A DNA stretch of 64,000 nucleotides from the NCBI GenBank assembly GCA_963803045.1, contig CAWDLC010000014.1, positions 50,003 to 114,002 on the forward strand. The letters run 5' to 3'. The position numbers and the translations under genes are program-made. Below the pieces are notes generated by a model. The model saw only the letters and a program-made list of their open reading frames with translations. It did no database searches and had not been told where the DNA came from. Within the stretch, counting starts at the first letter, position 1. The number at the start of each line of letters is the position of its first letter. Positions 2,993 to 45,290 of this stretch are shown one piece after another. The stretch comes from Candidatus Binataceae bacterium (GTDB lineage Bacteria; Desulfobacterota; Binatia; Binatales; Binataceae).

Positions 2993-4543
2993 ATGGGTCT
3001 TAAAGAAAATCTCGAACAACTCAAGCGACTCACGCGCGAGGCGGAGGCGGCCGGCGGCCAGGAGCGGCTCAAGAAGCAACGCGCACAGGGCCGCATGACC
3101 GCGCGCGAGCGGGTCGAGTTTCTCCTCGACCGTGATTCGTTCGTCGAACTCGACAAGTTCAAGACCCATCGAATCACCGACTTCGACATGGCGGAGAAGA
3201 AAATCCCCGGCGACGGCGTCGTGACGGGCTACGGCACGATCGACGGGCGGCAGGTGTGCATCTTCAGCCACGATTTCACGGTCTTCGGCGGCAGCCTGTC
3301 GGGCGCATTCGCGGAGAAGGTCTGCAAGGTGATGGACCTCGCGATGAAGACCGGATGCCCTGTGATCGGGCTCAACGACGGCAGCGGCGCGCGAATCCAG
3401 GAGGGCGTCGTGTCGCTGGCGGGCTACGCCGATATTTTTCTGCGCAACGTAATGGCGTCGGGAGTGGTCCCGCAAATTTCCGCGATCATGGGACCGTGCG
3501 CCGGCGGCGCGGTGTATTCGCCGGCGATGACGGACTTCATCGTGATGGTGCGCGATACCTCGTACATGTTCATCACCGGCCCCGACGTGATCCGGGCGAC
3601 CACGCACGAAGAGGTCACGATGCAGGAACTCGGCGGCGCAGATACGCATAGCCAGAAGTCGGGCGTGTGCCATCTCGAGGCCGACGACGACGCGGGCGCG
3701 CTCGCAATGATCCGCGAACTGCTTTCGTTTATTCCGTCGAACAATGTCGATGATCCGCCGTTCGTCGCGGGCGGCGACGATCCCGCCCGGATCGATGCCG
3801 CGCTCGATTCGATCGTCCCCGAAAATCCCAACAAGGCCTACGACATGGGCGAGATCATCCGGCGCGCGGTCGATGACGGCCAGTTTCTGGAAGTGCAGAA
3901 GGACTACGCGCACAACATGCTGATCGGGTTCGCGCGGCTCGGCGGCTACTCGGTTGGCGTGGTCGCGAATCAGCCGGCCTTTCTGGCGGGATGCCTCGAT
4001 ATCGACTCGTCGGTGAAAGCGGCGCGATTCGTGCGCTTCTGCGACGCGTTCAATATTCCACTTGTCACGTTCGTGGACGTGCCGGGCTTTCTGCCCGGTA
4101 CGGCGCAGGAGTTCGCCGGAATTATCAGGCATGGCGCGAAACTGCTCTACGCGTTCTGCGAGGCCACCGTGCCCAAGGTGACGGTGATAACGCGCAAGGC
4201 TTACGGCGGTGCGTACGACGTCATGTCGTCTAAGCATATTCGCGGCGATTTCAACTTTGCGTATCCGAGCGCCGAGATCGCGGTGATGGGACCCGAGCAG
4301 GCCATCAACATTGTTTTTCGCAACGAGATCGCCAAGGCCAAAGACGCAGTCGCCGAGCGCGCGCGGCTGACCGAGGACTATCGCAAGACTTTTGCCAATC
4401 CGTTCAAGGCGGCTGAGCTTGGCTATATCGATGAAGTGATCATGCCGCGCGACACGCGTCCCAGGCTGATCGGCGCATTGAAGGCGCTCGCGAACAAGCG
4501 CGACAAGAATCCGCCGCGCAAGCACGGCAATATTCCACTTTGA
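2993..4543 (+). CDS. pccB: acyl-CoA (propionyl/methylmalonyl-CoA) carboxyltransferase beta subunit
   Basis: 516-aa ORF with carboxyltransferase hallmarks: [70 protein letters not shown]. It is the first gene of a biotin-carboxylase, BCCP and mutase operon. Confidence 0.9.
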
Positions 4544-4605
4544 CCAAAAGTGTCCCGAGCAGCACTGGTCGCGCGCGACAACGGAGCGCGGTCTTAACAT
4601 TGGGT

Positions 4606-4622
4606 GCAGGGGTCACCCCTGC
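4606..4622. repeat. GC-rich palindromic hairpin GCAGGGG-TCA-CCCCTGC (family A, copy 2)
   Basis: 7-bp inverted repeat in the pccB-accC spacer, with the same core as 1097-1114 and 63011-63028. Confidence 0.75.
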
Positions 4623-4713
4623 CGCGCGGTTAGCTCGCGTGGGCTGGATTCAGTATACAATCTGGAGCGCGTGAGCCCCGGTCTGAAAGGTGGCCGGGAG
4701 CCAGAGGAAATTG

Positions 4714-6231
4714 ATGTTCAAGCGGATTCTAATCGCCAACCGCGGAGAGATCGCGGTGCGGATCATCCGCGCATGCCGCGAGTTGGGAATCGAATCGATC
4801 GCCGTCTACTCGGACGCCGATCGCGCCGCGCTGCACGTGCGCGAAGCCGATCATGCGCTACCGGTCGGTCCGGCGCCGGCGGCCCAGAGCTATCTTAACA
4901 CCGCCAAGATTCTTGAAGTCGCGAAACACGCCAAGGCCGACGCGGTTCATCCGGGTTACGGCTTTTTCTCCGAACGCGCCGCGTTTGCGCGCTCGGTGCA
5001 GGACGCCGGTCTGACCTGGATCGGGCCGCCGCCGGACGCAATCGAGCGGATGGGCGACAAGGTCGAGGCGCGCAAGTTGATGTCGGCGGCGGGAGTGGCG
5101 GTCGTGCCCGGCTCGCCGGGGACGCTGGAGACCGAAGCAGAAGTAGCCGCGGTCGCGAAAAAGATCGGGTTTCCAATCATGGTAAAGGCGGCCGCGGGCG
5201 GCGGCGGCAAGGGTCTGCGCTTCGTCGAGAACGGCAAGAACCTCGCCTCGGTGGTGCGCACGGTCGCAAGCGAAGCCAGGTCCTCATTCGGCGACGGGCG
5301 CCTTTACGTCGAGAAATTTCTCAACCACCCGCGCCATATCGAAGTGCAGGTGCTCGGCGACGCGCACGGCAACATCGTCCATCGTCTTCGAGCGCGAATG
5401 CTCGATTCAGCGCCGCCATCAGAAGGTCGTCGAGGAATCGCCGTCGCCGTTTGTCACGCCGGAGATGCGCGCTCAGATGGGCGAGGTCGCGGTGCGCGCG
5501 GCCAAGGCGGTGAATTACGACAGTGCGGGGACGATCGAGTTCCTGGTCGATGCGGAGCGCAACTTTTATTTCCTCGAGATGAACACGCGCATCCAGGTCG
5601 AGCATCCGGTGACCGAGATGGTGACGGGCGTGGATCTGGTGCGCGCGCAAATCGAAATCGCCGCGGGCGCCAAGCTGCCGTTCAAACAAACGGATCTCGC
5701 GCAGCGCGGATGGGCGATCGAGTGCCGAATCTACGCGGAAGATCCGGCGGCCGGCTTCGTACCGGCGCCGGGAAAGATCGAGACGCTCAGATTTCCCGAC
5801 GGTCCGGGCGTGCGCAACGACGCCGGTGTTTATCACGGGCGCCGAAGTGCCGGTCTTTTACGACCCGATGATCTCGAAGCTGGCGGTGTGGGGTGCCAGT
5901 CGCGAGCTTGCGATCGACAGGATGCGGCGCGCGCTCGGCGAATTCGTAATTTCCGGCGATCTGCGCACCAACCTCGACTTCCATCGCTGGCTCATGAAGC
6001 ATCCCAGGTTTTTGAAGGGTGATTTCGATACCTATTTTATCGACCACGAATACCATCCGAATCGAAAACGGCGCCGCGCCGCGCGGTGCGGAGCTGGCGG
6101 CGATTTTTCTCGCCGCGGTCGCAGCGCAGAAAAGCACCGGTCACGGCAATGGCGCCGGCGCGCAGCCGGTGGCCGCGGCGCGGGCGTCCGCATGGCGGAC
6201 GATCGGCCGGCTCGAGATGCTGCGGAGATAG
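4714..6231 (+). pseudogene. accC: biotin carboxylase (acetyl/propionyl-CoA carboxylase), interrupted by three +1 frame disruptions (or assembly indels)
   Basis: The homologous sequence runs through four ORFs in frames 1, 2, 0 and 1. Frame 1 (4714 on): MFKRILIANRGEIAVRIIRAC...GDAHGNIVH. Frame 2: [34 protein letters not shown]...[12 protein letters not shown]...DAGVYHG. Frame 0: [18 protein letters not shown]...DFDTYFIDHE. Frame 1: ...ELAAIFLAAVAA...ASAWRTIGRLEMLRR*. The shifts lie near 5383-5386, 5834-5840 (a GGG run) and 6040-6075. Confidence 0.85.
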
Positions 6232-6246
6232 CCGGGACTCTTATCG

Positions 6247-6750
6247 ATGCGATACCTCGCGACGCTTGACGGTCAGGAACACGAAATCGAGATTGAAGAG
6301 CTCGCCGCGGGCTCGTTCGCGATTCGTTTCGGTGAGAATCGTTTCGAAGCCGATTTGCGCAAGCTCGGGCCCGCATCCTTTTCGGTGATCGTCAACAATC
6401 GCTCGTTCGATTTCGACGTGGCGCGCGACGGCGAGGAAACTGTTGTCGCATCGCGCAGCCGGTCGACGCGGCTTACGGTCGCCGATGCGGCGCGACGGAC
6501 GGCGCGCGCGGCAGGCCCGCGGCGCGAGGTCAGCGGCCGCGTGGAAATAAAAGCCGCGATGCCGGGCCGGGTCGTCAATGTGCTGGTCGCGCCGGGCGAC
6601 GAAGTCAAAGCGGAACAGGGAGTCATCGTCGTCGAAGCGATGAAGATGGAAAACGAAGTCAAAGCGCCCAAGGCTGGCAAAGTCGTGGAAGTGAAGGCGG
6701 TCGCGGGCCAGGCGGTCGAGAAGGGCCAACTGATGATCGTTATCGAGTAG
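6247..6750 (+). CDS. biotin carboxyl carrier protein (biotinyl domain)
   Basis: 167-aa ORF ending in a biotinyl/lipoyl domain with the EAMKMENEV biotinylation motif. Confidence 0.85.
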   Translation: MRYLATLDGQEHEIEIEELAAGSFAIRFGENRFEADLRKLGPASFSVIVNNRSFDFDVARDGEETVVASRSRSTRLTVADAARRTARAAGPRREVSGRVEIKAAMPGRVVNVLVAPGDEVKAEQGVIVVEAMKMENEVKAPKAGKVVEVKAVAGQAVEKGQLMIVIE

Positions 6751-6788
6751 CAGCGGCAGCCGGATTCGACCGGTAGGGGCAGGTTACG

Positions 6789-8462
6789 ATGGCTGAAGAC
6801 GATCGCAAAATCGCGGACGCCCGCAAGCATTGGGAGGAGCGCAAGCTCAACCCTGCGCTGAAGCGCGGCGGCGAGCGCAAGCCCGCGTTCGTCACCAGCT
6901 CCGGAATCGAAATCAAGCGCGCGTACGATCCCGAAGACCTGAACGACTTCGATTTCGTGAGCGAGCTGGGCTTTCCGGGCGAGTATCCGTTTACCCGCGG
7001 CGTGCAGCCGACGATGTATCGCGGACGGCTGTGGACGATGCGCCAGTACGCAGGCTTCGGCAGCGCGGAGGAATCGAACCGCCGCTACCGCTACCTGTTC
7101 GAGCAGGGTCAGACGGGGCTGTCGGTCGCGTTCGATCTGCCCACCCAGATGGGCCGCGACTCGGATCATCCGCTGGCCGAGGGCGAAGTCGGACGCGTCG
7201 GCGTGCCGATATGCTCGCTGGCCGACATGGAGACGCTGCTCGCCGGGCTGCCGCTCGACAAGATTTCGACCTCGATGACGATCAACGCGACCGCGTCGAT
7301 CCTGCTTGCGTTGTACCTGGTCGTGGCGGAGCAGCGCGGGAACACCTGGGACAAGGTCAACGGCACGATCCAGAACGACATCCTGAAGGAATACGTCGCG
7401 CGCGGGACGTACATCTATCCGCCGCGCGGCTCGATGCGGATCATCACCGACATTTTCAGTTTTGCGTCGAAGGAAGTTCCGAACTGGAACACGATATCGA
7501 TCTCGGGCTACCACATCCGCGAGGCCGGCTCGACCGCGGCGCAGGAACTCGCGTTCACGATTGCCGACGGGATCGCGTACGTTGACGCCGCGCTGAAGGC
7601 GGGGTTGCAAATCGACGCGTTTGCGAGCCGCCTCTCGTTCTTCTTCAACGTGCACAACAACTTCTTCGAGGAAGTCGCGAAGTTTCGGGCGGCGCGGCGG
7701 CTGTGGGCGAAAATAATGAAGGAGCGCTTCGGCGCCAAGGATGAGCGCTCGATGATGATGCGGTTTCATGCGCAGACCGCGGGCTCGACGCTGACCGCGC
7801 AGCAGGTGGACAACAATATCGTGCGCGTGACGATGCAGGCGCTGGCGGCGGTGCTGGGCGGAGCGCAATCGCTGCACACCAACTCCAAAGATGAGGCGCT
7901 CGCGCTGCCGACGGAATCCTCGGTACTGCTCGCGCTGCGCACGCAGCAGCTTATCGCGCACGAGTCGGACGTCGCGGATACGATCGATCCGCTCGGCGGT
8001 TCGTACTACGTCGAACGGCTGACGACCGAGCTGGAAAAAAAGGCGGTCGAGTACCTGTCAAAGATCGACGACTTTGGCGGCGCAGTCGCCGCAATCGAGC
8101 GCGGCTACATGCAGCGCGAAATTCAGAACGCCGCATTTATCTACCAGCGCGAGATTGAAACCGGGCAGCGAATTATCGTAGGGGTCAACCAGTTCACCGG
8201 GGGCGGCGAACCGCCGGGGGAAATTCTGCGGGTCAACCCGGAGCTCGAGGAGAAACAGAAGGCAGGCGTTGCGCGCGTGCGGGCAGAAAGAAATGCGGAG
8301 GCGGCGAACAAGGCGCTCGCACGGGTCGAGGCGGCGGCAATCGACGGGCAAAATCTGATGCCGCCGATAATCGATGCAGTGCGCGGATGGTGCACGCTTG
8401 GAGAAATATCGGACGCGATGCGCAAGGTGTTCGGCGAGTACAGACCGGTGAATACGGTGTAG
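6789..8462 (+). CDS. methylmalonyl-CoA mutase family, large (catalytic) subunit without B12-binding domain
   Basis: 557-aa ORF with [61 protein letters not shown] and [14 protein letters not shown]. No DxHxxG cobalamin-binding domain lies at the C-terminus. Confidence 0.9.
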
Positions 8463-8606
8463 CATCGCGTTCGGCGGGCGGATTCATATCAAGGAGACCG
8501 GAATCGGAAAGGGGCGGCGCGTGGCGGATTTCGCGAGCGTCGCAAAGCAACTGGAGTTGTGACAACCAACCGCGGCGACCCGCGCATTCGATCGGAGAAA
8601 AAATAA

Positions 8607-9170
8607 ATGGGGCCGATCCCGAAGGGAGCATTTTTGACCAGGGGCGTGGGCCGGCATCGAGAGAAGCTGACTTCTTTCGAGCTGGCGCTGCGTTCGGCGG
8701 GAATTGCCGAGTTCAACCTCGTGCGCGTCAAATCGATTTTCCCGCCCAATTGCAAACTGCTCAGCCAGCAGGAAGGCTTGAAGTACTTGACCCCGGGGCA
8801 GATTGTTTTTGCCGTGATGAGCGATAACGCGACCAACGAACCGCATCGGCTCATAGCGGCGTCGGTGGGCGTCGCGCTTCCCAGCAATCCGGCGCAGTAC
8901 GGATACCTGTCCGAGCATCACAGCACGGGAGAGACGGACCAGAAGGCGGGCGACTACGCGGAGGATCTGGCGGCGATGATGCTGGCGACAATTCTTGGCG
9001 TCGATTTCGATCCGAATCTGAGCTACGACGAGCGCAAGGATCTGTGGCGGATGTCGGACAAAATCGTAACGACGCGCAACGTGACGCAGTCGGCGATAGG
9101 CGATCGCGACGGGCTGTGGTCGTCGGTGGTCGCCGCCGCGGTGTTCGTCGATATCCCCAACGGCAAGTAG
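8607..9170 (+). CDS. pdaD: pyruvoyl-dependent arginine decarboxylase
   Basis: 187-aa ORF. FLTRGVGRHREKLTSFELALRSAGIAEFNLVRVKSIFPP resembles the PvlArgDC family around the self-cleavage serine. Confidence 0.7.
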   Translation: MGPIPKGAFLTRGVGRHREKLTSFELALRSAGIAEFNLVRVKSIFPPNCKLLSQQEGLKYLTPGQIVFAVMSDNATNEPHRLIAASVGVALPSNPAQYGYLSEHHSTGETDQKAGDYAEDLAAMMLATILGVDFDPNLSYDERKDLWRMSDKIVTTRNVTQSAIGDRDGLWSSVVAAAVFVDIPNGK

Positions 9171-9230
9171 TTCGCGAGCGAAGCGCACCGCGCGTTTGAC
9201 CGGCGCGAGACCGGTGCGTACGCTTTAATC

Positions 9231-9533
9231 ATGGCTACCGAAATTCTCTACTGCGCTGCTTGAGGCTATAAGCCGCGCGCGGCCAGTCTGGCCGCGTCAT
9301 TAAATTCCAGGTTCGGCGAGAAGGCGGAAATCACGGCCGGCAAGTCCGGTCAGTTCGACGTGATCGTGAACGGGCGGCTGGTTTTCTCGAAGGCGAGTAC
9401 AGGCCGATTCCCGCTTGACGGCGAAGTCGAAGAGATCTTCGCGGCTCTCAAAGAAGGCCGCGAGCCTGCGCCGGTGGAAGAAAAGAAACCGGAAGGGTTT
9501 CTCGGGCGCATGCTCGGAAAGCTCAGGAACTGA
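9231..9533 (+). CDS. SelW/Rdx-family selenoprotein (in-frame UGA = Sec at codon 11)
   Basis: ATG 9231, TGA 9261-9263, true stop TGA 9531-9533. Read-through gives MATEILYCAAUGYKPRAASLAASLNSRFGEKAEITAGKSGQFDVIVNGRLVFSKASTGRFPLDGEVEEIFAALKEGREPAPVEEKKPEGFLGRMLGKLRN. It has the CxxU redox motif plus Rdx hallmarks after the UGA (RA..L...L...F, G..G.F.V.V.G.LV.SK...GRFP). A hairpin starts 15 nt downstream of the UGA, and selC is in the same window. Neither half appears in the ORF track. Confidence 0.85.
9278..9296 (+). promoter_or_regulatory. bacterial SECIS-like hairpin
   Basis: CGCGGCC-AGUCU-GGCCGCG: a perfect 7-bp stem and a 5-nt loop containing GU. It starts 15 nt 3' of the UGA at 9261-9263, inside the coding sequence. 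Confidence 0.6.
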
Positions 9534-9580
9534 GCGAATCGGCAGGCGACCGCGAACCGTCCTGACAAAAGATCAATCCG

Positions 9581-10672
9581 CTACGGATGCATGTCGAGGA
9601 ATTCCTTGAAGCCGCTCCGATCGTGCGGCCCCAGGATTATCATCTCGAGGATTCCCATCCCCTCGCGCGAACCCATTTTCGCCTGGCATACAGCCTGGAT
9701 GTGCTGATGAAAGAAATCGCGCTCGTCGACGTCGGCGGTTTTGAACGACTCGTAGGTCGAGACGTCGGGGCCGACGTACATTCCGTGCCCCCACTTCGGA
9801 TGAAGGTAGCCGATGCCTTGCATGTAGAAGTTGTACAGCGTCTTCAGTTCGATGCGGCTTTGGCCGGCGCGCGGGGTGCGCAAAATTATCTCGGCGGTCC
9901 TGGCGTGGCGCGTTCCGGATGCATAGTTGATGTTGAAATCGACGCTGGTTGAGAGATCGAGTGGCGCGCCGGGGTCGGCTTGGGTGACGGCGGCGAACTC
10001 GTGCCATCGCGAGCCGTCGGCGTTTTCGTTGGCGTCGCAAAGAGTGCAGACATCTTCGAAATTGGTCGGCGACCACAGCCAGTAGAACTGGCCCATGGCG
10101 GACGAAGGCACTCCCGCCGGATCCTGCGGCCCGATTGAGCGCACGCCCCACGAGCGATCGCGCGAACCCCACACTCGCGACGGTTTTGCCTCGTAGGTCT
10201 TGCCCGCGACCGTCAGGCTGCCGCGGTAACCGCCGTGCTGTGTGAACCGCGTCAGGTCCATCACGAGCCGCGGACCGGCGCGGCGCGAAAAGCGCGGCTC
10301 CTCGATTGCCGCGGTGCGCGCCTCGAACGTCAGGTCGGCCTTTACAGCTTCATGATCGACGCGAACGCGCAGCGTTCGCATCGGCCGTACGATCTCGATT
10401 GAGATCGGGCCGACCCGCGTGTCCAGCCGCTCGGCGCCGAGCACCCGCGATGCGCGCACGCAATGTTGCACGCCATCGGCGACCGCGCTGAATGCGCAAT
10501 CGATAATCCCGATGTTCGGATAAATTCCCATCGCGGCGGCGAAGTATGGCTCGCCCTCGCGAAAGTAACCGTTGAAAAAAAACCGATCATAAAAGTTGCG
10601 ATCGCTGGTGAAGACCTGCTGGACCGGCTCCGGCGTCTGATGAATCGGATAGTCGTCGCCCTGCGTGATCAT
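9581..10672 (-). CDS. conserved hypothetical protein (beta-rich, no motif I can name)
   Basis: ATG at 10672 preceded by AGGAGA 6 nt upstream; 363 aa beginning MITQGDDYPIHQTPEPVQQVFTSDRNFYDRFFFNGY. The composition is protein-like throughout. The longer TTG-start version in the track (to 10708) is less likely. Confidence 0.65.
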   Translation of the reverse strand: MITQGDDYPIHQTPEPVQQVFTSDRNFYDRFFFNGYFREGEPYFAAAMGIYPNIGIIDCAFSAVADGVQHCVRASRVLGAERLDTRVGPISIEIVRPMRTLRVRVDHEAVKADLTFEARTAAIEEPRFSRRAGPRLVMDLTRFTQHGGYRGSLTVAGKTYEAKPSRVWGSRDRSWGVRSIGPQDPAGVPSSAMGQFYWLWSPTNFEDVCTLCDANENADGSRWHEFAAVTQADPGAPLDLSTSVDFNINYASGTRHARTAEIILRTPRAGQSRIELKTLYNFYMQGIGYLHPKWGHGMYVGPDVSTYESFKTADVDERDFFHQHIQAVCQAKMGSREGMGILEMIILGPHDRSGFKEFLDMHP

Positions 10673-10708
10673 CGTTGTCTCCTGCTGTGACTGAAACGCG
10701 TTCGCCAA

Positions 10709-11632
10709 TCAGGCCGGGAAGAGTTTGCCAAGTTCGGCCGCCTCGAGGCGGATGCCGACGTAAAAGGGGCCGAACTTCGCATACGACGCGCTGGCCTCGT
10801 CGAAGCGCATCTCGTAAACGAGTTTCTTGAATACCAGCGGATCGTCGGCGAAAAGATCGACGCCCCATTCCCAATCGTCGAATCCCATCGAGCCCGAGAT
10901 GATCTGCGTCACTTCGCCGGCGAAACGCCGCCCGACCAGGCCGTGGTCATGCATCAGACGCTGGCGATCCTCCATTGGCAGGCGATACCAGTTATCGGCG
11001 CCTTCGCGCTTCTTGTCCATCGGATAGAAGCACAAGTAGGGTCGCGCGGGGATTTTCGGAAACAAGCGCGGCGAAATTTTCTCCCGCTGCCGGGCAATCT
11101 CGGAATCGATTTCAGACTTCCATTGCGCCGTGTGCGGTCCGATGCCCTGCTCGACGAGCCGGCGATAGAGCGCAACGGTCGCTTCGTAGAGACCGAGTTC
11201 GATTACCGACAGATACGACGTAGTCGGTTCCAGGCAGTCGCTGAGTGCAAGCCCGGCGACGGCCAGCTCGGCCTGGCCGAGTTCCTCGAAGCTGCGGCGG
11301 AAGTGGACGATCATCAGATCGCCCTTGTGGCCGAGCGCGGAGAAGAGCGCGGTTTCACCGTCTTCGCGCCGGGCCATCTCGCCGAACAGCTTCGACGCGC
11401 CCTCGAGGGCAGCGTTGCGTTTCGTAGCCGCGAGCATGCGCAATTCGCGGCGCCGGACGCGGAACATCTGATGGAGAATGCTGTAACCTTCGAGCGTCAG
11501 AGGTGCGGCGGGAAAATCGCCGGGGATCTTCGACCGCTCCCTGCCTCGATTTTGCTCTGCGCGGTCGCTACTCATGGCGGCAATTCTAGACGCTACGCCG
11601 CCGGTTGTCTTGAGTCGCGCGAGCGCAGGCAC
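10709..11632 (-). CDS. chlorite dismutase family protein (HemQ/ChdC-like)
   Basis: Motifs include YSILHQMFRV, LSVIELGLYE, YLCFYPMDKKR, NWYRLPMEDRQRLMHDHG and GFDDWEWGVDLFADDP...KLVYEMRFDE. The start is either GTG 11632 (GGAGG about 10 nt upstream) or ATG 11575. Confidence 0.8.
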   Translation of the reverse strand: MPALARLKTTGGVASRIAAMSSDRAEQNRGRERSKIPGDFPAAPLTLEGYSILHQMFRVRRRELRMLAATKRNAALEGASKLFGEMARREDGETALFSALGHKGDLMIVHFRRSFEELGQAELAVAGLALSDCLEPTTSYLSVIELGLYEATVALYRRLVEQGIGPHTAQWKSEIDSEIARQREKISPRLFPKIPARPYLCFYPMDKKREGADNWYRLPMEDRQRLMHDHGLVGRRFAGEVTQIISGSMGFDDWEWGVDLFADDPLVFKKLVYEMRFDEASASYAKFGPFYVGIRLEAAELGKLFPA

Positions 11633-16034: not shown

Positions 16035-18542
16035 TTACTTCACGACCGGGGCCGGATAAAGGCTGGTGTTGACTCTGGCCAAGTGGCGCTGATGGCGTGC
16101 CGTCCCGAGATGCATCAGGCGGTAAACTTCAACCTTCGCCAAGTCGTTGATAACAAACCATACGAGCGCATATCCCCACACCGCCATCGCATACTTCCAT
16201 CCCAGCGGCGTCATACCCCATCCATAGACCGCGGCCAGGGTTCCGATGACCTGGGTTGTTTCGCAGGCAACGACCAGGCGCCAATTGGGCCACGGGCGCT
16301 GCCAAGACGTTCCCACGCTTCGCGTGATGTAAATGGTGAGGTGACCGGCGACCAGCAGCTTGAGGAAGATAAGGCTCTGAACCATGGGCCGGGGCAGGTG
16401 AAGGTATTTCTCTGCGATCCAGAAAAGGCCGAATGCAGAGATAACTCCCATCACGCCGAGAACCGAGCTGACCGTGAGTACGCGTTCCATGTCCCAGCGC
16501 ACTGGGCGTGGAGCTACGATGGTGTTGTCGTAGGCGATCATCATGATCGGGAAGTCATTGAGGACCGCGATGAGAACGATCATGACTGCGGTTACCGGGT
16601 AGAAGTTGAACACCACAATCGCGAGCGTCATGAAGAGCAGGACGCGGATGGTTTCGGAAATCCGGTAGATTGCGTAACTGTTCATGCGCTCGAAGATCTT
16701 GCGTGCTTCTGCAATGGCGGCGGTGATTACAGAGAGACCGGTCGCCGTGAGCACCAGATCCGAGGCCGCACGAGCGGCGTCGGTCGCGCCGCTTACCGCG
16801 ATTCCGCAATCAGCCTGTTTGAGCGCGGGAGCGTCGTTGACGCCGTCACCGGTCATTCCGACGATATGTCCACGCGCCTGGAGGGCCTTGACGATTTTGA
16901 ACTTATGCTCGGGAAAAACCTGTGCGTAGCCGTCGGCCGCGTCTATCTTGTCACTGTCGTCGGCCTTACCGTCAGGAAATAGATCGCTGGCAACCGCGAT
17001 GTTCGGTCCCAGCTTGAGTTCGAGCGATACCTCGCGAGCAATTGCAAGGTTGTCGCCGGTTACCATGCGAACCTGCAGTCCCATCTTTCGCGCGGTCGCG
17101 ATGGTAGAGGCTGAATCGTCGCGCGGCGGATCGGACAGCGACAGTAGTCCAAGGAATTCCCACTTTCCCTGGGCATCGGTGCGGGCGACGCCAAGGGTGC
17201 GATAGCCTTTGGCCGCAAGCTCGTTAACCTGCCCTTCGGCTTTTTTGCGAGCGTCCGCGTCGGGATGGACCAGATCCAGAATCACCTGCGGGGCGCCCTT
17301 CGAGACTTTGAAAGTGGCGTTGTCATGTTTCACCTCGGCCTCAGTTCGCTTACTGACAGGATCGAAAGGGGTGAAATGAGTGATTTGATAGGCTTTTAAC
17401 GCCGACTGATCGCTCAGAGTTTTGAGGACGGCCTCGTCGATGCTGTCGCCGCCCTCCCTTCGCGAGGCCAACGCCGCGCCCAGGATCAGGTCCTGATCGC
17501 TGCTCGCCTTGAAGACAACGGGTTTGCTCAACTTGAGCTCGCTCTTGGTGAGCGTACCAGTCTTGTCCGAGCAGAGAATGTCCATGCCGGCCATCTCTTC
17601 GATCGCGGCGAGGCGGGACACGATAGCCTTCATCCTGGCAAGCACGGATGCGCCGACGGCCATCGTGACGGACAGGACCGCGGGCAAGGCGACCGGGATT
17701 GCAGCTACCGTAAGAATCAGTGCAAATAGCAGGGTTTCGACCAGCGGGTCGCCGCGAAATAGCGCGACTGTCAGGATCAATGCGACCAGGCCGAGCGTGA
17801 TCAGAATGAGGAAATTACCGATCTTGAGCACCGCCTTCTGAAAGTGGGACACGGTCTGAACGCTCTCGACCAGTCGCGCGGTGCGGCCGAAGAGCGTGTT
17901 CATTCCGGTGGCGACGACGAGCCCATTCATCTGGCCCATTCGCACGATCGATCCCGAATACGCGACGTCATTTTTCTTCTTGTCGACCGGCAGTGACTCG
18001 CCCGTCAGCGCCGCCTGATCGATGCTGAGGTAGTCGCCATCGACCAGCTTCAGGTCGGCGGGGATGACGTTGCCGAGTTTGACCATGACAATATCCCCGC
18101 TCACCAGAGTCTTTGCCTCGACGTCGCTCCACTTGCCGTCGCGCAGCACTCGTGAATGCAGTGCGAGATTCTTTTTCAGCGCCTCGATCTCATTGTCGGC
18201 CTTAAATTCCTCCCAGAAGCCGACGACCGCATTCAGCGCCAGCATGAAAAAGATGATGACGAAGTCTTCCCAACGCCGAACCACTGCGGAGAGTATCGCG
18301 GCAATTTCGATCATCCACGCGATAGGTCCCCAAAGGAACGTCAGGAACCGCTTGAGGGGGCTGATGCGCTTTTCTTCGATCGCATTCGGACCGTCCTTCT
18401 TGAGACGGCCTGCCGCTTCTTCCTGGGTCAGTCCATGTTCGAGACTCGAATGGAACTTGGCGAGCGTCTCTTGAATCGTCCCGGTGTCAGCTGGTGTCTG
18501 CGCACCTTTAGGCGCATCTGCGACGGGCTGCGAGTGCTTCAC
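16035..18542 (-). CDS. P-type ATPase, type IIIA (plasma-membrane H+-ATPase-like)
   Basis: CSDKTGTLT, MVTGDNLAIA and GMTGDGVNDAPALKQADCGIAV. The N-terminal half (GLTQEEAAGRLKKDGPNAIEEKR...LRDGKW...VSGDIVMVKLGNVIPADLKL...IDQAALTGESLPV...HFQKAVLKIGNFLI) tracks plant, fungal and archaeal P3A pumps. I place the start at GTG 18540-18542, overlapping the upstream TGA (GTGA); this gives 835 aa. Confidence 0.9.
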   Translation of the reverse strand: MKHSQPVADAPKGAQTPADTGTIQETLAKFHSSLEHGLTQEEAAGRLKKDGPNAIEEKRISPLKRFLTFLWGPIAWMIEIAAILSAVVRRWEDFVIIFFMLALNAVVGFWEEFKADNEIEALKKNLALHSRVLRDGKWSDVEAKTLVSGDIVMVKLGNVIPADLKLVDGDYLSIDQAALTGESLPVDKKKNDVAYSGSIVRMGQMNGLVVATGMNTLFGRTARLVESVQTVSHFQKAVLKIGNFLILITLGLVALILTVALFRGDPLVETLLFALILTVAAIPVALPAVLSVTMAVGASVLARMKAIVSRLAAIEEMAGMDILCSDKTGTLTKSELKLSKPVVFKASSDQDLILGAALASRREGGDSIDEAVLKTLSDQSALKAYQITHFTPFDPVSKRTEAEVKHDNATFKVSKGAPQVILDLVHPDADARKKAEGQVNELAAKGYRTLGVARTDAQGKWEFLGLLSLSDPPRDDSASTIATARKMGLQVRMVTGDNLAIAREVSLELKLGPNIAVASDLFPDGKADDSDKIDAADGYAQVFPEHKFKIVKALQARGHIVGMTGDGVNDAPALKQADCGIAVSGATDAARAASDLVLTATGLSVITAAIAEARKIFERMNSYAIYRISETIRVLLFMTLAIVVFNFYPVTAVMIVLIAVLNDFPIMMIAYDNTIVAPRPVRWDMERVLTVSSVLGVMGVISAFGLFWIAEKYLHLPRPMVQSLIFLKLLVAGHLTIYITRSVGTSWQRPWPNWRLVVACETTQVIGTLAAVYGWGMTPLGWKYAMAVWGYALVWFVINDLAKVEVYRLMHLGTARHQRHLARVNTSLYPAPVVK

Positions 18543-19850
18543 AGGTAGCCTAATTGCCGGGCGCCGAGACGAAGTTGCTCGTGAAATTTCGGATGAGCTA
18601 TTGCAATCAGCGCTTCGGCTCTGTCCGCTGTCGATTTCCCGGTGAGGCAAGCCACTCCATACTCGGTAGCGACATACTGAGTATCGGTTCTTGGATCGGT
18701 AGTGGGTCCTTCGATCTTTGGGACGATACGCGAGATGGTGCCTTTGCCCGCGGTCGAGTACGCGGCGAGAATCGATTTGCCGCCCTTCGATAGCTGAGCG
18801 CCGCGCACGAAATCCAACTGGCCGCCGGGAGCGCTGTACTGCTTGCCCATGATCGCTTCGGAATTGACGGCGCCGTCGAGGCCGACCTCGAGAAACGCGT
18901 TGATCGAGATCACGCAATCGTTCTGTCCGATGACGTTCGGGTCATTCACATAATCAACGGGGCGGGCCTCCATGCTCGAATTGTCGTTGAGAAATTCGTA
19001 GAAAGGTTGGTCGCCGACCGCCAGGGTGTACACGTTCTTGTATCGATTCAGGTTCTTGTACCTGTTCGTGACGGTGCCCGACTGAATCAGCGCCGCCACG
19101 GGGGGCATCATCGAGCTCACTGTGTATGCCCAAATCCTTGTGGCCGTGCAGGGCGGCGCATACAGCGTTGGGTACTCCACCGACTCCTACCTGGAGCGTC
19201 GCGCGGTCCGGGATCAGCTCGACGATGTGCTTGCTGATCACATTGTCCAATGGCGTCGGTGGCCGGGAAGGCACCGAGAACAGCGGACTTTCATTTTCGA
19301 CAATCGCCGCGACTTCCGATATGTGCACCGACGAATCGCCGAACACGCGCGGCATCCTGGGATTGACTTCAACGATCAGATTCTTTGCGATTCGTGCGGT
19401 CGGGATCGTGTAGTCGGAGTTGGTGCCGCAACTGAAGAATCCGCCTTTGTCCATCGGCGCGACCATCATAATGAATGCGTCGATTCCCATTTCGCGCAAC
19501 ACGCGCGGCATCGCACTGAAATTGCCCGGCATGTAGAAGACGACGCGCCGATTATCCTGTTGGCCCCGCTCGAAGAGCATTCGTTCGATAATCGTAGGGA
19601 AGAAGGGATGCGGCTTGATGACGTCCATGTATTCGTACTTTAGGATCGTGGCGGCGGCGGCTGCGACTGAGTGCGAATAGTAAACGCGAAGCTCCTCGAT
19701 CTTGCGGCTCTTCACTCGATTCTCGAGCGCTCCTAACAAGGCGGGCGGTTCGCTGATCGCCATGCCCATCGAGAGGGTGCCTCGCGATGGAATCAACTCC
19801 GCCGCCGCCGCCGGCATCATCAACTTGGATTTGTATTCGGTTTCGTACAT
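18539..19850 (-). pseudogene. acetyl-CoA hydrolase/transferase family (4-hydroxybutyrate CoA-transferase-like), one +1 frame disruption (or assembly indel)
   Basis: Two overlapping ORFs (19850->18954 and 19180->18539) carry consecutive parts of one homolog. Deleting one G from the G6 run at 19100-19105 joins ...HGHKDLGIHSELDDAP to VAALIQSGTVTN... and yields a continuous 436-aa protein. Confidence 0.85.
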
Positions 19851-19873
19851 GTACTGTCCGTTTCCCGGCCCCA

Positions 19874-20056
19874 TTACCTGGGGATCTCTGTACGGCGCCG
19901 CGAAGCAGGCGTGTAGTGGGTCATCTTTTTGTAGATGGCCATCACTATACTGTAGAACTGCCTGCCGCGCGCGTTCGGATATTCCTCTCGGGCGCGGGCC
20001 TTCGCGCGTTCCCACGCGATCTCGTCTTCTGGAGTCTTGACTACACCGACCGGCAT
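19874..20056 (-). CDS. small conserved hypothetical protein (60 aa)
   Basis: ATG at 20056 with GGAGG 9 nt upstream: MPVGVVKTPEDEIAWERAKARAREEYPNARGRQFYSIVMAIYKKMTHYTP.... It is the first gene of the CoA-transferase/ATPase transcription unit. Confidence 0.6.
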   Translation of the reverse strand: MPVGVVKTPEDEIAWERAKARAREEYPNARGRQFYSIVMAIYKKMTHYTPASRRRTEIPR

Positions 20057-23867: not shown

Positions 23868-25292
23868 CTAACGCCAGGCCGGGGAATCGCTGCCGAGCGG
23901 CGCGGGCGGGATATCCCATCGCGGCGCCGTTTCCGACATGCGCGCAATCGGCCCCAGCCGCGATAGAGGCCCCCAAGCGCTATTCATCTCAATGATCCAG
24001 GGAGCAATCGCCGCCGCATCGAGTCCCGCAGGTACGGCGTCTGGCGCGGTGCGCGGCAGCGACATGATCCACATCGCAGTGCGCGCCAGCGACACCCGAA
24101 CGTGCCAGCTGCCGCCTTCAACTGCGCGGCGCGCGAGCGCGCACATCACGCCCAGCGCGCCGAGATAACCTGTCGTGTAGTCGGTGATCGCGGCCGGCAC
24201 CAGCGCGGGATGCTCGTCGCCGGCGTGCTCGTGCGCCATGCCGGTAACAGTCTGCGCGAGTTGTTCCCATCCTGGGCGCCCCGCGAACGGACCTTCATGT
24301 CCGTAGCAGTCGATCGATACCACTATGATGCCGGGCCGCATCTGCGCCAGTGCTTCGGGCGCGAAGCCGCGCCGCGCGAGAGCCCCCGGACGGTATCCTT
24401 GCGAGAACACGTGCGCGTCGCGGACCAGCGCGCGCAATTGCTCGGCGTCTTCCTTGCGATCGAGTTCCAGATAGCACGAGTGCTTGCCAGGATTGGTATC
24501 GATCACGAAAGGCTCAATTGACGGCAGCTTGGGCCCTCGCACATGCAGCACCTGCGCGCCATGCTCCGCCAGGGTCCGTGCGCAGGTCGGTCCCGCCAGC
24601 ACGCGCGTCAGATCGAGAACGCGCACGCCCGAAAGCGGCCGAGCGCCATGCTCAGCGGCCCGAGGTGCGGGAAGCGGCTCACGGGCCGCATCGCCGAGGC
24701 GAAGCATCTCGACCACAGGCACTCGCGCGAGCGCGATCCCCTGCGGATGAACGCGCCACTCGTCGGCGCTGCGGAGCTTCGCTCCGCATACGCCACGCTC
24801 GGCGAGCGCATCTTCAAGCGCTTGGGCATCCCAGGATGCGACTGCCTTCGCGATCGCGGCGGGAACGTCATCGCATCTCAAAAGCGCAAGCGTGCCTTCA
24901 CGCGAACGGAATCCGCCGTGCAGATGAATCCATTGCCCGTCACGCGCTTGATAGAGCGCGGTCGTGGGCTGCCCGCGCCGCTCAAACGGGGCACCTTGAT
25001 ACCTCAAGTATGCGAACGACACGAGCGACGCGGCCGCGGCGCGCACGTCCACCTCGATGCGCTGCGGACGGCCGCCGCGCGTGCACCACAGATCGGCGGC
25101 GGCGGTCGCATTCGCGGCGAGAACCGCGGCCGCTGCCTCACCGGCGCGAAATCGAGTCGCGATTACCGGATCACGTCCGGTGATTTGTAGCGCGTGTTGA
25201 TTCGGATTGCCCGCGCCTCCGAGCGGAGCAAGAAGATCGCTCATCCACCTGACCGGTTCCACCGGTGAAGAGGCCGTCTGCGAAGCCGCCAT
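23868..25292 (-). CDS. family III CoA-transferase (CaiB/BaiF) with atypical domain order
   Basis: 474 aa. The signature SGVRVLDLTRVLAGPTCARTLAEHGAQV lies around residue 220 rather than at the N-terminus. The preceding about 215 aa resemble the small-domain/C-terminal half of canonical members (LYQARDGQWIHLHG..., ...SADEWRVHPQG). Confidence 0.75.
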   Translation of the reverse strand: MAASQTASSPVEPVRWMSDLLAPLGGAGNPNQHALQITGRDPVIATRFRAGEAAAAVLAANATAAADLWCTRGGRPQRIEVDVRAAAASLVSFAYLRYQGAPFERRGQPTTALYQARDGQWIHLHGGFRSREGTLALLRCDDVPAAIAKAVASWDAQALEDALAERGVCGAKLRSADEWRVHPQGIALARVPVVEMLRLGDAAREPLPAPRAAEHGARPLSGVRVLDLTRVLAGPTCARTLAEHGAQVLHVRGPKLPSIEPFVIDTNPGKHSCYLELDRKEDAEQLRALVRDAHVFSQGYRPGALARRGFAPEALAQMRPGIIVVSIDCYGHEGPFAGRPGWEQLAQTVTGMAHEHAGDEHPALVPAAITDYTTGYLGALGVMCALARRAVEGGSWHVRVSLARTAMWIMSLPRTAPDAVPAGLDAAAIAPWIIEMNSAWGPLSRLGPIARMSETAPRWDIPPAPLGSDSPAWR

Positions 25293-33945: not shown

Positions 33946-35205
33946 ATGAGTGCGACGGAGAACATGATGGATTCAGACGGCCCGATGACCGGAAAACCTG
34001 ACGCCTCGCGATTTATGCAGGATACCGAAGTGCGCAGTTGGCTCGACAAAGCCATTCAACGATGGCGTCTGTGGCTGGTCGTTTTGGCCCTCGCGGTGAT
34101 TGGCCTTTACTTTTTTATCGCCCGCAGCCGCCCTGATTCTTCCACAGAGCCATCTGCAGCCGCGGTGCACATGATCGTTCCGGTCGCAGCGGTGCCGGCG
34201 AAGCTCGGTGATATGAACCAGTACCTATCCGCGATCGGAACGGTGACGGCATACAACACGGTTACCATCAAAAGCCGGGTGGATGGCGCGCTCGACAAGG
34301 TAAACTTTACCGAGGGGCAAATAGTAAAGGCCGGCGATCTGCTGGCTGAGATCGACCCGCGTCCGTACCAGGTGCAGCTCGAGCAGGCCGAGGGCACGCT
34401 CGCGAAGGATCTGGCGTCGCTCGAAAACGCCAAGGTTACATTCGAGCGCGACAAGGAACTCTTCAAGCAAAATGCCCTCGCGCGTCAGGATCTCGACAAC
34501 CAGGAAACGGCGGTCGGACAGTACGCCGGTTCGATCGAGAGCGATAAGGGCGCCGTGGATAACGCCAAGCTTCAGCTGACCTACAGCCGCATCACTTCGC
34601 CGATCACTGGTCGGGTTGGGCTGAGGTTGGTGGACGCGGGCAATATCATTCATGCGACCGACGCGACGGGTCTCGCGGTGATCACGCAGCTACAGCCGAT
34701 CGCGGTTGATTTCGGTATTCCGGAGGACGATCTGCCACGCCTCGAGAATGCGATGAAGAGCAACAGCCAGTTGCCGGTCGAGGCTTACGATCGTGACTTC
34801 GAGCACCGGCTCGCGGCTGGAACGCTGCTCACGACCGACAACCAGATCGATCAGTCCACCGGCACGATCAAGCTCAAGGCGTCCTTTCCCAACGAGGACA
34901 ACTCGCTGTTTCCGAATCAATTCGTCAACGCGAGGCTGCTCGTCAATACCCTGCACGATGTGCTTCTGATCCCGGCGGCCGGTCTCCAGCGCAGCCAGCA
35001 AGGTTCGTTTGTATACGTCGTCAAGCCTGACCATACCGTCGAGATGCGCAGCGTGACCGTGGGTGCAACCCAGGGCGACGTGATCGCGATAGACAAGGGC
35101 CTTGCGGCCGGCGACCTGGTCGTCACCGACGGGGTGGACAAGCTGCAACAAGGATCACACGTGGATGTGCAGACGGCGGCTATAGCGCCCGCGAGTACTC
35201 CGTGA
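33946..35205 (+). CDS. mdtA: RND efflux periplasmic adaptor (MdtA-like)
   Basis: TM anchor, then an HlyD/MFP fold with ...[22 protein letters not shown].... The stop overlaps the next gene's GTG (GTGA). Confidence 0.85.
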
Positions 35206-38200
35206 GTCTTTCGCGCCCGTTCATACTCCGGCCGGTTGCAACTTCGCTGCTGATGGTCGGGCTGATGCTGGCCGGCCTCGTCGCCTACGGGCAGCTGCCC
35301 GTGTCGGCGCTGCCGCAGGTGGATTATCCGACCATCCAGGCTATGACGTTTTATCCGGGCGCGAGTCCGGACGTGATGGCGTCTTCGGTAACGGCGCCGC
35401 TCGAGCGGCAATTCGGAGAGGTGCCGGGGCTTACCCAGATGACCTCGAACAGCTCGTTCGGCAGCTCGGTCATCACGCTGCAGTTCGACCTCAACTTGAA
35501 CATCGACGTTGCCGAGCAGGAGGTACAGGCGGCGATCAACGCGGCCGCGACCTACCTGCCCCTGGACCTCCCCAACCCGCCCGTTTACAGCAAGACCAAT
35601 CCGGCCGACGCGCCTATTCTCACCCTGGCGCTGACGTCGAAGGAACTGCCGCTCCCGCAAGTCGAGGATCTGGCCGACACGCGTCTGGCCGAGAAGATCT
35701 CGCAGCTGCCTGGCGTGGGTTTGGTGAGTATCGGCGGCGGCCAGAAACCTTCGGTCCGCATACAGGCCAATCCGACCTCGCTCGCGTCGTATGGAATGAC
35801 GCTCGAGGACCTGCGCACTGCGATCGCGAGTGCCAACGTCAACGAGGCCAAGGGCAACTTCGATGGCAAGCAGCAGGCGTACACGATCGGCGCCAACGAC
35901 CAGCTCCTGACGGCCAAGGACTACCTGCCGCTGATCGTCGCGTATCATAACGGCGCACCGGTCAAGCTTTCCGATGTCGCCCACGCGATAGACGACGCCG
36001 AGAACGTCAAGGCCGCGGCGTGGATGAACACCACGCCGGCCGTGATCCTCAACGTTCAGCGCCAGCCCGGCGCCAACATCATCGCCGTCGTGGACCGCAT
36101 CAAGGCCCTGATGCCGCGCTTGCAGGCCTCGCTGCCCTCGTCGGTGAAGGTCGAGATCCTGACAGATCGGACCACCACGATTCGCGCGTCGGTGGCGGAC
36201 GTGCAGTTCGAGTTGATGCTGACGGTGGCGCTGGTCGTGATGGTCATCTTCCTGTTTCTGCGCAGTCTGTCGGCGACGATCATTCCCAGCATCGCGGTGC
36301 CGCTCTCCCTGATCGGAACGTTCGGCGTGATGTACCTGCTCGGCTACAGCCTCGACAACCTGTCGCTGATGGCGCTTACGATTTCGACCGGCTTCGTCGT
36401 TGACGACGCGATCGTGATGATCGAAAACATCTCGCGCTTCATCGAGGAAGGCGACGCGCCGCTGCAGGCCGCGCTCAAGGGCGCCGAGCAGATCGGCTTC
36501 ACGATTCTTTCGCTGACCGTGTCGCTGATCGCGGTGCTGATTCCGCTGCTGTTCATGGGCGATATCGTCGGCCGGTTGTTCCGTGAGTTCGCGGTCACGC
36601 TGGCGGTGACGATCCTGATGTCCGCGGTCGTCTCCCTGACGCTGACGCCAATGATGTGCGCGAAGCTGCTGCGGCATACGACCGAGCGTGAGCAGACCTG
36701 GTTCTATCGCAGGTCGGAAAAGGTATTCAAAGACACAATCGCGCTTTACGGCCGAACGCTCGAGTGGGTTCTTGCCCACGAAACCGAAACGCTGATGGTC
36801 GCGATCAGCACCCTGGTCCTGACGATCGTGCTCTACGTCGTCGTGCCCAAGGGCTTCTTTCCGGTGGAGGACACCGGCGTTATCCAGGGCGTCTCCGAAG
36901 CGCCGCAGAATGTATCGTTCGCCGCGATGGTGCGCGGCCAGCAGGCTTTGGCGCGGGTCATTTTGCAGGACCCGGCGGTGGAGAGTCTGTCGTCGTTTGT
37001 CGGGATCGATGGCACCAACACCACCGTTAACAGCGGACGAATACTGATCAATCTGAAACCGCTCGAGCAGCGCAACGTGGACATCAGCACGGTCATTAAC
37101 CGCTTGCAGCCGAAGTTGGCGACCGTCGGGGGGATGACGCTCTTTTTGCAGCCGGTGCAGGATCTGACGGTCGAAGACCGCGTGAGCCGCACGCAGTATC
37201 AGTACAGTCTCGAAGATCCAAGCGCCGGCGAATTGATTCTCTGGACGGGGAAACTCGTGGATAAGCTCAAGACGCTGCCGGCGCTCCGCAACGTCGCCAC
37301 CGACCAGCAGAACGGCGGCCAGCAGGAGCATGTCGTCATCGATCGGCTGACGGCTTCGCGCCTGGGTATCACGCCAAATCTGATCGACAACACCTTGTAC
37401 GACGCCTTTGGACAGCGGCAGGTGTCAACGATTTTCACGCAGTTGAACCAGTATCACGTGGTGCTCGAAGTGGCGCCGGAGTTTCAAAACAGTCCGCACG
37501 CGCTTGACGACATCTATATTCGCTCGACCGCGGGCGGTGAGGTGCCGCTCGAGCGCCTTCACCCACTTCGAAGCCGGGTTCTGCCCCGCTTGCCGTCAAC
37601 CATCAGGGCCAGTTTCCCGCAGTCACAATCTCGTTCGATTTGGCACCGGGCTACTCGCTGGGCGACGCGGTCTCCGCGATCGACCAGGCGCGCCAGGAAA
37701 TCGGGATGCCGGTAAGTATCGAGGCTGCGTTCCAGGGCACCGCCGAAGCGTTCCGGGCGTCGTTGACCAACGAGCCGCTGCTAATCCTCGCGGCGCTGGT
37801 CACCGTGTACATCGTGCTCGGGGTTCTTTACGAGAGTTACATCCATCCGATCACGATTATCTCGACCCTGCCATCGGCGGGCGTCGGCGCGATCCTCGCT
37901 CTGATGATCTGCGGTTCTGATCTCAACGTGATCGCGCTCATCGGCATCATCCTGCTGATAGGTATCGTGAAAAAGAACGCAATCATGATGATCGATTTCG
38001 CACTTGAAGCTCAGCGTAAGGACGGCAAGCCACCGCGCGAAGCGATCTTTCAGGCCTGCCTGCTGCGCTTCCGGCCCATCATGATGACCACGATGGCGGC
38101 GTTGCTCGGCGCATTGCCGCTGGCGCTGGGAACCGGCACCGGCTCCGAGTTGCGCCGCCCGCTCGGCATTGCAATCGTCGGCGGCTTGCTCGTGAGCCAG

Positions 38201-38320
38201 GTGCTCACGCTTTACACGACGCCGGTGATTTTCCTGACCTTCGACCGCTTGGCGACGCGAGTGGCGAAGTGGCGGACGAAGGATGTTGTTCCCGAGACCG
38301 TTCCGGCTCAAGCGTCATGA
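35202..38320 (+). pseudogene. mdtB: RND multidrug efflux pump (MdtB-like), two closely spaced +1 frame disruptions (or assembly indels)
   Basis: The sequence is continuous RND from [17 protein letters not shown]. Frame 0 runs to ...GGEVPL. Frame 1 carries only [10 protein letters not shown]. Frame 2 carries [30 protein letters not shown]... through to the stop at 38320. Extra nucleotides lie near 37551 and 37582; removing both gives 1038 aa. Confidence 0.85.
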
Positions 38321-44004: not shown

Positions 44005-44438
44005 TATTTCGTGCTCCCGATCTGAGGTTCCAGCACGCAGCTCTGGATCTCGGTCTGTGCCGCATCAGTATCGATCGGATTGAGATGGGGAACGGCAGTC
44101 AGCCAGCCCCATCCAAGTTCTTCTCTGATGTAGTAAACACGCGGCTCGGTTTGGATTTCCACTTCGTCGGCGGTGTCAGTCTGGATGCTGCAAACGACCT
44201 GCTCCCCGGCGGGAACGATGAAAGCATGATAGCCGCCCGGACCGATCCGCGCCGTGTCCTCACCGCATGTAACCGCGGGGCGAAGCGCCGATCCCCCGTA
44301 GCTGTAAGGCCTGTACACGTAGATCACCGCGTTGCCCGGAGGTGCCGGGATTTTTTCAAACGGTTGGCCCTGGACCGCGCATCCGATTGCAAAAACGCCG
44401 ACGACGCCGGGCAAGAATACCAGAAGCCGGCGATTCAT
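44004..44438 (-). CDS. lipoprotein, DUF2846-like
   Basis: Signal peptide with lipobox AIGC. AVIYVYRP...GPGGYHAFIVPAGEQVV resembles DUF2846. Its stop overlaps the fusion gene's ATG by 1 nt. Confidence 0.5.
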   Translation of the reverse strand: MNRRLLVFLPGVVGVFAIGCAVQGQPFEKIPAPPGNAVIYVYRPYSYGGSALRPAVTCGEDTARIGPGGYHAFIVPAGEQVVCSIQTDTADEVEIQTEPRVYYIREELGWGWLTAVPHLNPIDTDAAQTEIQSCVLEPQIGSTK

Positions 44439-45252: not shown

Positions 45253-45261
45253 AGCCCTTAT

Positions 45262-45290
45262 TTATTAGGCACTTACGGCGATTCGCACAA
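45262..45290 (-). promoter_or_regulatory. candidate sigma70-type promoter for selC
   Basis: On the minus strand: TTGTGC (45290-45285), a 17-nt spacer, TAATAA (45267-45262), then 9 nt to the tRNA 5' end. Confidence 0.3.

Follow-up and report, generated by a model that had tools for sequence, protein, structure and literature searches.

Positions 9231-9533 of the window, i.e., the whole stretch of 64,000 nucleotides that was analysed, very probably encode a 100-residue SelW-like protein of the Rdx family, a selenoprotein of a Candidatus Binataceae bacterium produced by the standard bacterial recoding of UGA as selenocysteine (Sec), as far as can be judged from the sequence and its relatives. 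The gene is complete, lies on the plus strand together with all of its features described below, and consists of 100 sense codons, including the Sec codon 11, plus a terminal TGA; it is supported by the matches to Pfam PF10262 and TIGR02174 and by 79 Binataceae loci. Its ATG start codon (9231-9233) is invariant in 80/80 sequences. The frame is interrupted only once, by the TGA at 9261-9263, which ends the putative redox motif TGC GCT GCT TGA (9252-9263), to be read as Cys8-Ala-Ala-Sec11, and it is closed by an ordinary TGA stop at 9531-9533, TGA being the commonest stop in the window (17/35 confident genes, the SelW-like gene among them). The read-through product starts as MATEILYCAA*GYKPRAASLAASL..., where the asterisk stands for the UGA, and the full translation of 9231-9533 is MATEILYCAA*GYKPRAASLAASLNSRFGEKAEITAGKSGQFDVIVNGRLVFSKASTGRFPLDGEVEEIFAALKEGREPAPVEEKKPEGFLGRMLGKLRN. 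A CxxC or CxxU motif located after the first strand is a trait of the SelW-like family, and in the alignments the Cys8-Ala-Ala-UGA11 occurring here falls opposite the CxxC of MIEN1 and opposite the motif of SelW, which is mutated in the mouse PDB chains. Both the 100-codon frame split by the TGA and the Y-C-A-A-U motif had been proposed in the initial annotation, and the ATG, the two TGA triplets and the motif were all recovered in the translation. The accompanying statement that no ORF of 60 aa or more occurs here holds for the own frame of the gene, in which the longest conventional ORF has 57 aa (GTG 9360; 9360-9533), but not for the other frames, where mechanical ORFs of 72 aa (9350-9568, minus strand) and 64 aa (9415-9609, plus strand) overlap the gene. 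A promoter/terminator scan of 8500-9700 gave nothing informative on the plus strand.

Beyond the Rdx domain, the Pfam match to which stops at residue 68 of the protein, the gene product possesses a C-terminal extension comprising codons 69-100 (9435-9530). This tail of about 30 residues is absent from most other family members. Its end, PEGF(V/L)GRMLGKLRN, is kept in many Binataceae relatives and also in the Cys homologue P0121, while some Binataceae subclades possess a longer Ala/Lys-rich linker or end soon after the Rdx domain. The spacing of the hydrophobic residues suggests that the tail could form an amphipathic helix, and the AlphaFold2 (AF2) model of the relative P0001 contains a low-confidence helix at residues 91-96 of this region.

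The assignment to the Rdx family was checked with the profile search proposed in the initial annotation. With U replaced by C, the read-through protein matches Pfam PF10262 (Rdx) over residues 4-68 with 59.7 bits, for a cutoff of 22.6 (E = 3.3e-16), and the 89 residues located downstream of the TGA match it on their own (40.8 bits, E = 2.6e-10). The NCBIfam model TIGR02174 (SelT/SelW/SelH; CXXU_selWTH) reaches 58 bits (cutoff 34.2). The top-scoring NCBIfam model is the SelTWH_Campy equivalog NF041051 (77.4 bits, residues 4-69), yet its curated cutoff stands at 88 bits, which rules out membership of the equivalog. By sequence, the nearest solved structures are those of human MIEN1 (PDB code 2LJK, 1.3e-8) and mouse SelW (PDB code 2NPB, 5e-5), in both of which the YC-x-x-(C/U)-GYKP segment is aligned; bacterial Rdx structures rank lower. 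The AF2 model of P0001, built from 23 mostly N-truncated sequences, reaches a pLDDT of 58, too low to establish the fold, and lacks strand 1; its predicted succession of a helix (15-28), three strands and a second helix (63-74) corresponds to the order expected for a thioredoxin-like beta-alpha-beta-beta-beta-alpha fold.

The SelW-like gene occupies a well-defined position in the genome. Propionyl-CoA carboxylase, methylmalonyl-CoA mutase, pyruvoyl-dependent arginine decarboxylase and the SelW-like gene follow each other in this order (window 2993-9533), the decarboxylase gene (8607-9170, same strand) ending 60 nt before the SelW-like gene. The same arrangement recurs in about 75 of the 80 best Binataceae loci (L001-L080), in which the SelW-like ATG is usually found some 40-75 nt past the decarboxylase gene; the decarboxylase is missing from L041, L049 and L053, where the SelW-like gene comes directly after the mutase. 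On the other side, a convergent 375-aa ORF (9581-10708, minus strand) has no counterpart in Pfam at a threshold of E = 1e-5 and yet occurs at the same position, with 68-91% identity, in about 50/80 Binataceae loci; it is adjoined by a gene of the chlorite-dismutase family (10709-11632). Other genes of the window belong to acyl-CoA metabolism, RND efflux, the electron transfer flavoprotein (ETF) and cytochrome oxidase, and the gene content indicates an aerobic heterotroph. An 841-aa ORF (41479-44004, minus strand) displays an unusual fusion of an APH-type phosphotransferase domain (residues 38-252) with a full amidase domain (residues 387-816).

Several genes of the window appear to be split by frameshifts, at 4690-6750 (plus strand), 18539-20015 (minus), 35202-38320 (plus) and 23868-25292 (minus). 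The biotin carboxylase domains pass from the frame 4690-5871 into 5465-6022 and then stop again, the N- and C-terminal domains of an acetyl-CoA hydrolase (18539-20015) are distributed over two overlapping ORFs, and an AcrB-type pump breaks off at profile position 794/1021, beyond which a coding-like ORF of the same strand (37541-38320) is found. These breaks are probably due to indel errors of a long-read assembly and not to decay of the genes. Similar frameshifts occur within the SelW-like gene itself in the related loci L026, L029 and L067.

The in-frame TGA was followed through the relatives of the gene at two evolutionary distances. One genome per GTDB species was scanned, which yielded 207 relatives, the best 80 of which were examined and 79 of which could be parsed. 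These best 80 all come from metagenome-assembled genomes (MAGs) labelled Candidatus Binataceae, Candidatus Binatus or "delta proteobacterium", and share 55-94% protein identity. Codon 11 is TGA in 79/79 parsable Binataceae loci (80/80 with the window), none of which terminates at this position. The ten codons preceding the UGA encode MAT(E/Q)ILYC(S/A)A throughout. Within this segment, codons 2, 3 and 9 change synonymously while the amino acid is kept (entropy 1.6-1.8 bits), and the pre-UGA segment must therefore be translated in the same frame as the post-UGA segment. Translation in one frame across the UGA is incompatible with an assembly error and speaks against a separate start further downstream. 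Upstream of the ATG there is no conservation, and several relatives exhibit an in-frame stop four codons before it.

More distant homologues were reached in two ways. An exhaustive search of cluster representatives with P0001 found 248 homologues, and the 150 listed include 42 full-length proteins with a CxxC motif and 36 with an apparent "CxxW"; the closest Cys form among the listed representatives is P0121 (CGIC), with 57% identity. In addition, metagenome contigs were scanned with five distant "CxxW" forms as queries, the W being masked as X, and the best 80 loci gave 77 parsable genes. TGA occupies the equivalent codon in 76/77 of these distant SelW-like genes, the remaining one being a Cys paralogue (the second gene in L109). 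The alignment of Cys versus Sec at codon 11 that had been called for separates the TGA-containing genes from distant full-length homologues which carry Cys at this position, i.e., the 42 CxxC representatives among those listed, P0121 included, and the second gene in L109.

The segment following the UGA contains a hairpin, CGCGGCC/AGUCU/GGCCGCG (9278-9296), beginning 15 nt past the UGA. In the ViennaRNA fold the minimum free energy (MFE) hairpin of the window reaches 9277-9297, with a centroid of -17 kcal/mol. The core hairpin (9279-9295), recognized from the fold, frozen synonymous sites, pairing and covariation, consists of the stem GCGGCCA (9279-9285)/UGGCCGC (9289-9295) closed by the loop GUC (9286-9288); the core stem can alternatively be described as 6 bp with the loop AGUCU. 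The 7-bp hairpin with loop AGUCU announced in the initial annotation is present at the predicted distance, but its outermost pair, C9278-G9296, is not conserved, being a standard pair in 36/76 relatives (25 of them C-G) and no pair in 40/76, and the conserved stem is the one at 9279-9285/9289-9295. The fold energy of the 76 nt at 9255-9330 does not differ significantly from that of shuffled sequences (z = -0.68). Owing to the 62% GC content and to a fold no better than shuffles, the hairpin alone is no evidence, and because of this unexceptional energy the structure has to be argued from conservation and covariation.

Conservation is first apparent at synonymous sites. The codon entropy given the amino acid, over 80 sequences, falls to 0.10, 0, 0, 0.58 and 0.61 bits for codons 17-21 (GCG GCC AGT CTG GCC, 9279-9293), compared with 1.35-1.81 bits for the Ala codons 2, 22, 32 and 36, and 0.69 bits for codon 10. 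The codon of Ser19 is AGT in 79/79 sequences, to be set against the 6% of Ser codons that AGT accounts for across the window genes. Within the Binataceae clade (76 sequences including the window), each of the seven core pairs is standard in 92-100% of the sequences, and the few changes of the stem preserve pairing by wobble only (GC->GU 11 times, CG->UG three times, AU->GU once). The stem being near-invariant in Binataceae, the covariation support comes from more distant family members only, namely the metagenomic SelW-like genes, in which the hairpin occurs at the identical offset from the TGA.

Binataceae and distant genes were combined into a joint covariation alignment of 101 sequences (alignment A6), in which the stem corresponds to columns 22-38 (window 9279-9295). 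The seven-pair stem shows standard pairs in 88.5% of the cells, and its covariation score amounts to 0.297, whereas shuffles give 0.106 (0/500 reaching the observed value) and slid controls stay at or below 0.10. Pair 24-36 occurs as all four Watson-Crick types (CG 34, GC 32, AU 10, UA 10, in addition to GU 7), pair 25-35 as GC 82 and UA 9, and pair 27-33 as CG 97 and UA 3. The loop G9286 is invariant (101/101) and is followed by U or G; this G-U (9286-9287) corresponds to the G[G/U] element of the bacterial SECIS apical loop, the presumed contact with SelB (PMC13188914). Taken at the level of the aligned genes, the synonymous-site constraint and the compensatory changes show that the hairpin is under selection as RNA. 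According to a 2026 review (PMC13188914), a bacterial SECIS has an upper stem of 4-16 bp, a UGA-loop distance of 16-37 nt, an MFE of -7.5 kcal/mol or lower and an apical loop of the pattern N1 G [G/U] N N2. On these four points the Binataceae hairpin exhibits a stem of 7-9 bp, a spacing of 21-22 nt, -17 kcal/mol and a loop of 3-5 nt (A-G-U-C-U or GUC), which together with the covariation in the wider family bears out the SECIS-like geometry that had been attributed to it. Rfam, applied to the whole window at the gathering score, gave no SECIS-type match to the hairpin, and when applied to 9200-9400 at E up to 10 gave only a chance-level match to a gyrA RNA (E = 0.6).

The residues encoded by the stem vary across the family (AASLA, AAGLA, AARLA, ASSLE, ASSLG, ATSLA), and the amino acids encoded by its two arms co-vary as A..A, S..E, S..G or T..A in alignment A6. 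Since these residues change along with the stem, the RNA would constrain the protein over this part of helix 1. In the Cys paralogue of L109 (RATALAS), the only Cys form whose DNA was inspected, the hairpin no longer forms. A broader and rather doubtful proposal may be built on these features: the coding-region SECIS would have shaped the protein sequence family-wide, helix 1 being partly dictated by base pairing; the widespread RAASLAA-type motif, found in some CxxC members too, would be left over from an ancestral form that used Sec; the Binataceae gene would be obligately Sec, as it looks from the TGA in 79 parsable loci, each from the genome of a different GTDB species; and the clade-specific tail, together with the fixed place behind the pdaD and methylmalonyl-CoA genes, might point to a specific partner.

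The window also contains a gene for tRNA-Sec (selC) with the anticodon UCA at 45157-45252 on the minus strand, recognized by ARAGORN and by Rfam RF01852 (72.7 bits for a gathering score of 47, E = 5.9e-13), as the initial annotation had indicated. It is not adjacent to selA or selB; Pfam matches none of the flanking ORFs (44004-45031, 45485-46036 and 46324-47163), and no convincing gene lies in the stretch 45253-46600 beside it. A Pfam scan of the 64-kb window found no selA, selB or selD among its approximately 55 genes. The warning that further UGA-containing genes would be missed by stop-based gene calling found no second case in the window, where the search for other read-through candidates (TGA flanked on both sides by coding-like GC3) returned only gene boundaries and antisense shadows.

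Three other readings of the TGA have to be weighed against Sec. According to one of them, of practically negligible likelihood, it is a sequencing or assembly error for TGC or TGT, and the gene encodes a CxxC homologue of the Rdx family. Such a reading takes its appeal from the existence of Cys forms in the SelW-like family and from the several apparently frame-shifted genes in the assembly (biotin carboxylase 4690-6022, AcrB 35202-38320, acetyl-CoA hydrolase 18539-20015), but the errors visible in the window are indels and not substitutions, and the TGA recurs at this very codon in each of the 79 independent MAG loci that could be parsed, obtained by many studies and assemblers, and in 76/77 distant metagenomic genes. 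The conservation of the TGA across independent MAGs refutes the error in practice, and the possibility of a miscalled Cys codon, raised in the initial annotation, is answered by its presence in every parsable Binataceae locus.

It is also very improbable that the UGA is a true stop, leaving a 10-residue peptide or nothing, and that initiation within the gene yields a shorter Rdx-like protein devoid of the redox motif, as in the 57, 77 or 81 aa of public annotation. The database entries for the clade are almost all truncated ORFs of this kind, and the in-frame GTG at 9360 indeed opens a 57-aa ORF; the internal starts, however, differ in residue (M, L or V) and in position among relatives, no single one being conserved, whereas the ten pre-UGA codons and the stretch extending from the UGA to the internal starts show protein conservation with synonymous variation, and the Rdx profile alignment runs from residue 4 across the UGA. 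The truncated product would, moreover, be devoid of strand 1 and of the active-site motif. An internal-start protein was rejected on account of the missing conserved start and of the conservation on both sides of the UGA. A genome-wide reassignment of UGA to Trp (code 4) or Gly (code 25), or its near-cognate suppression, so that residue 11 would not be Sec, appears extremely improbable. W or G does stand at this position in some database translations of family members, but the W-containing entries also read their own terminal TGA into junk tails and are probably gene-caller artefacts, TGA stops 17/35 confident genes of the window, the SelW-like gene included, and neither Trp nor Gly can substitute for a redox Cys or Sec; the conserved SECIS and the tRNA-Sec gene also count against it. 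Codes 4 and 25 were rejected because more genes of the window end normally in TGA than in any other stop codon.

The preferred reading remains that of a SelW-like selenoprotein gene, for which the family membership, the persistence of the UGA with coding sequence conserved on either side, the constraint and covariation of the hairpin RNA, and the tRNA-Sec gene have been shown. Translation would begin at the ATG 9231, and the ribosome would pass the UGA at 9261-9263 without terminating, the hairpin at 9279-9295, with its loop G-U from 22 nt past the UGA, probably recruiting SelB with GTP and Sec-tRNA(Sec) supplied by the gene at 45157-45252. Sec would be placed as the second redox residue of Cys8-x-x-Sec11, where helix 1 of the predicted thioredoxin-like fold begins. 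At the second TGA (9531), which has no hairpin behind it, termination would be normal. The binding of SelB, the actual insertion of Sec and the redox chemistry of the product are what we infer from this arrangement; the product would most likely act as a small redox protein cycling between a selenenylsulfide and a thiol/selenol form.

Stop-based gene callers truncate the SelW-like gene because its in-frame UGA is read as Sec. A protein search found 136 close relatives, almost all of them fragments of 57, 77 or 81 aa from varying internal starts located after the UGA, for which IMG gives the names "hypothetical protein", "Rdx family" and "predicted Rdx family selenoprotein". In the "CxxW" SelW-like entries of public protein collections (36/150 listed representatives; P0130-P0260; loci L081-L160), the Sec UGA appears as Trp. 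Several of these entries run past their own terminal TGA into junk tails, and therefore code-4 gene models made the TGA into Trp; the spurious tails are consistent with such models on short metagenome contigs. In public data the SelW-like gene of the clade is systematically mis-annotated: it is entered as fragments of 57-81 aa under the name "hypothetical protein" or "Rdx family", and distant members of the family appear with Trp. The gene itself is an ordinary bacterial selenoprotein gene of a long-known family, in a lineage whose use of Sec had not been discussed before; a full-text literature search for Binatota and selenocysteine found no relevant paper. Candidatus Binataceae, an uncultured and widespread group known only from MAGs, uses selenocysteine on this reading and presumably needs selenium. 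The family and its motif are already textbook matter, as is the recoding mechanism, and the value lies in the corrected annotation and in the alignment of a coding-region SECIS with covariation support, clean enough to seed a covariance model for gene finding.

The SECIS of E. coli fdhF, the reference SelB-binding hairpin, is also located in the coding region directly 3' of the UGA. It has in common with the Binataceae hairpin a short GC-rich upper stem closed by A-U and a G-U in the loop, and the UGA-loop distances of both lie within 16-37 nt. The fdhF sequence, which we take to be GCAGGUCUGC, resembles the Binataceae hairpin CCAGUCUGG. The two differ in their loops, GGUC in fdhF and GUC or AGUCU in Binataceae, and in the bulged U, which was not identified in the Binataceae hairpin.

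Mammalian selenoprotein W (PDB code 2NPB) possesses an almost identical motif context, YC-x-x-(U/C)-GYKP. Its recoding signal is organized differently, the mammalian SelW SECIS being located in the 3'-UTR whereas the hairpin of the Binataceae gene lies inside the coding region. MIEN1/C17orf37 (PDB code 2LJK), the Cys paralogue of mammalian SelW, is the closest structure by sequence. The C-terminus of MIEN1 is a prenylation motif, in contrast to the tail of the Binataceae protein, which ends basic and is possibly amphipathic. Eukaryotic SelW depends on its 3'-UTR SECIS with SBP2 and eEFSec (PMC10778597).

The prokaryotic SelW-like selenoproteins, described by Zhang and Gladyshev from 2005 (PMC1088965), are the nearest known system. 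This CxxU selenoprotein family (Pfam Rdx), reported in prokaryotes in 2005, has no known function and outnumbers every other selenoprotein family in marine metagenomes, from the Sargasso Sea and the GOS (PMC1088965; PMC1794560; PMC9312934). Its members have in common with the Binataceae gene a small size, an N-terminal CxxU and an in-frame UGA, behind which comes a small hairpin carrying a G in its apical loop, and the 76 metagenomic SelW-like members also have in common with it the codon, the hairpin offset and the covariation of the stem. The Binataceae protein is distinct from the sampled metagenomic SelW-like proteins, with which it is only about 40-50% identical, in having GYKP and not NYxP after Sec, and from most SelW-like members in possessing the additional C-terminal extension of about 30 residues.
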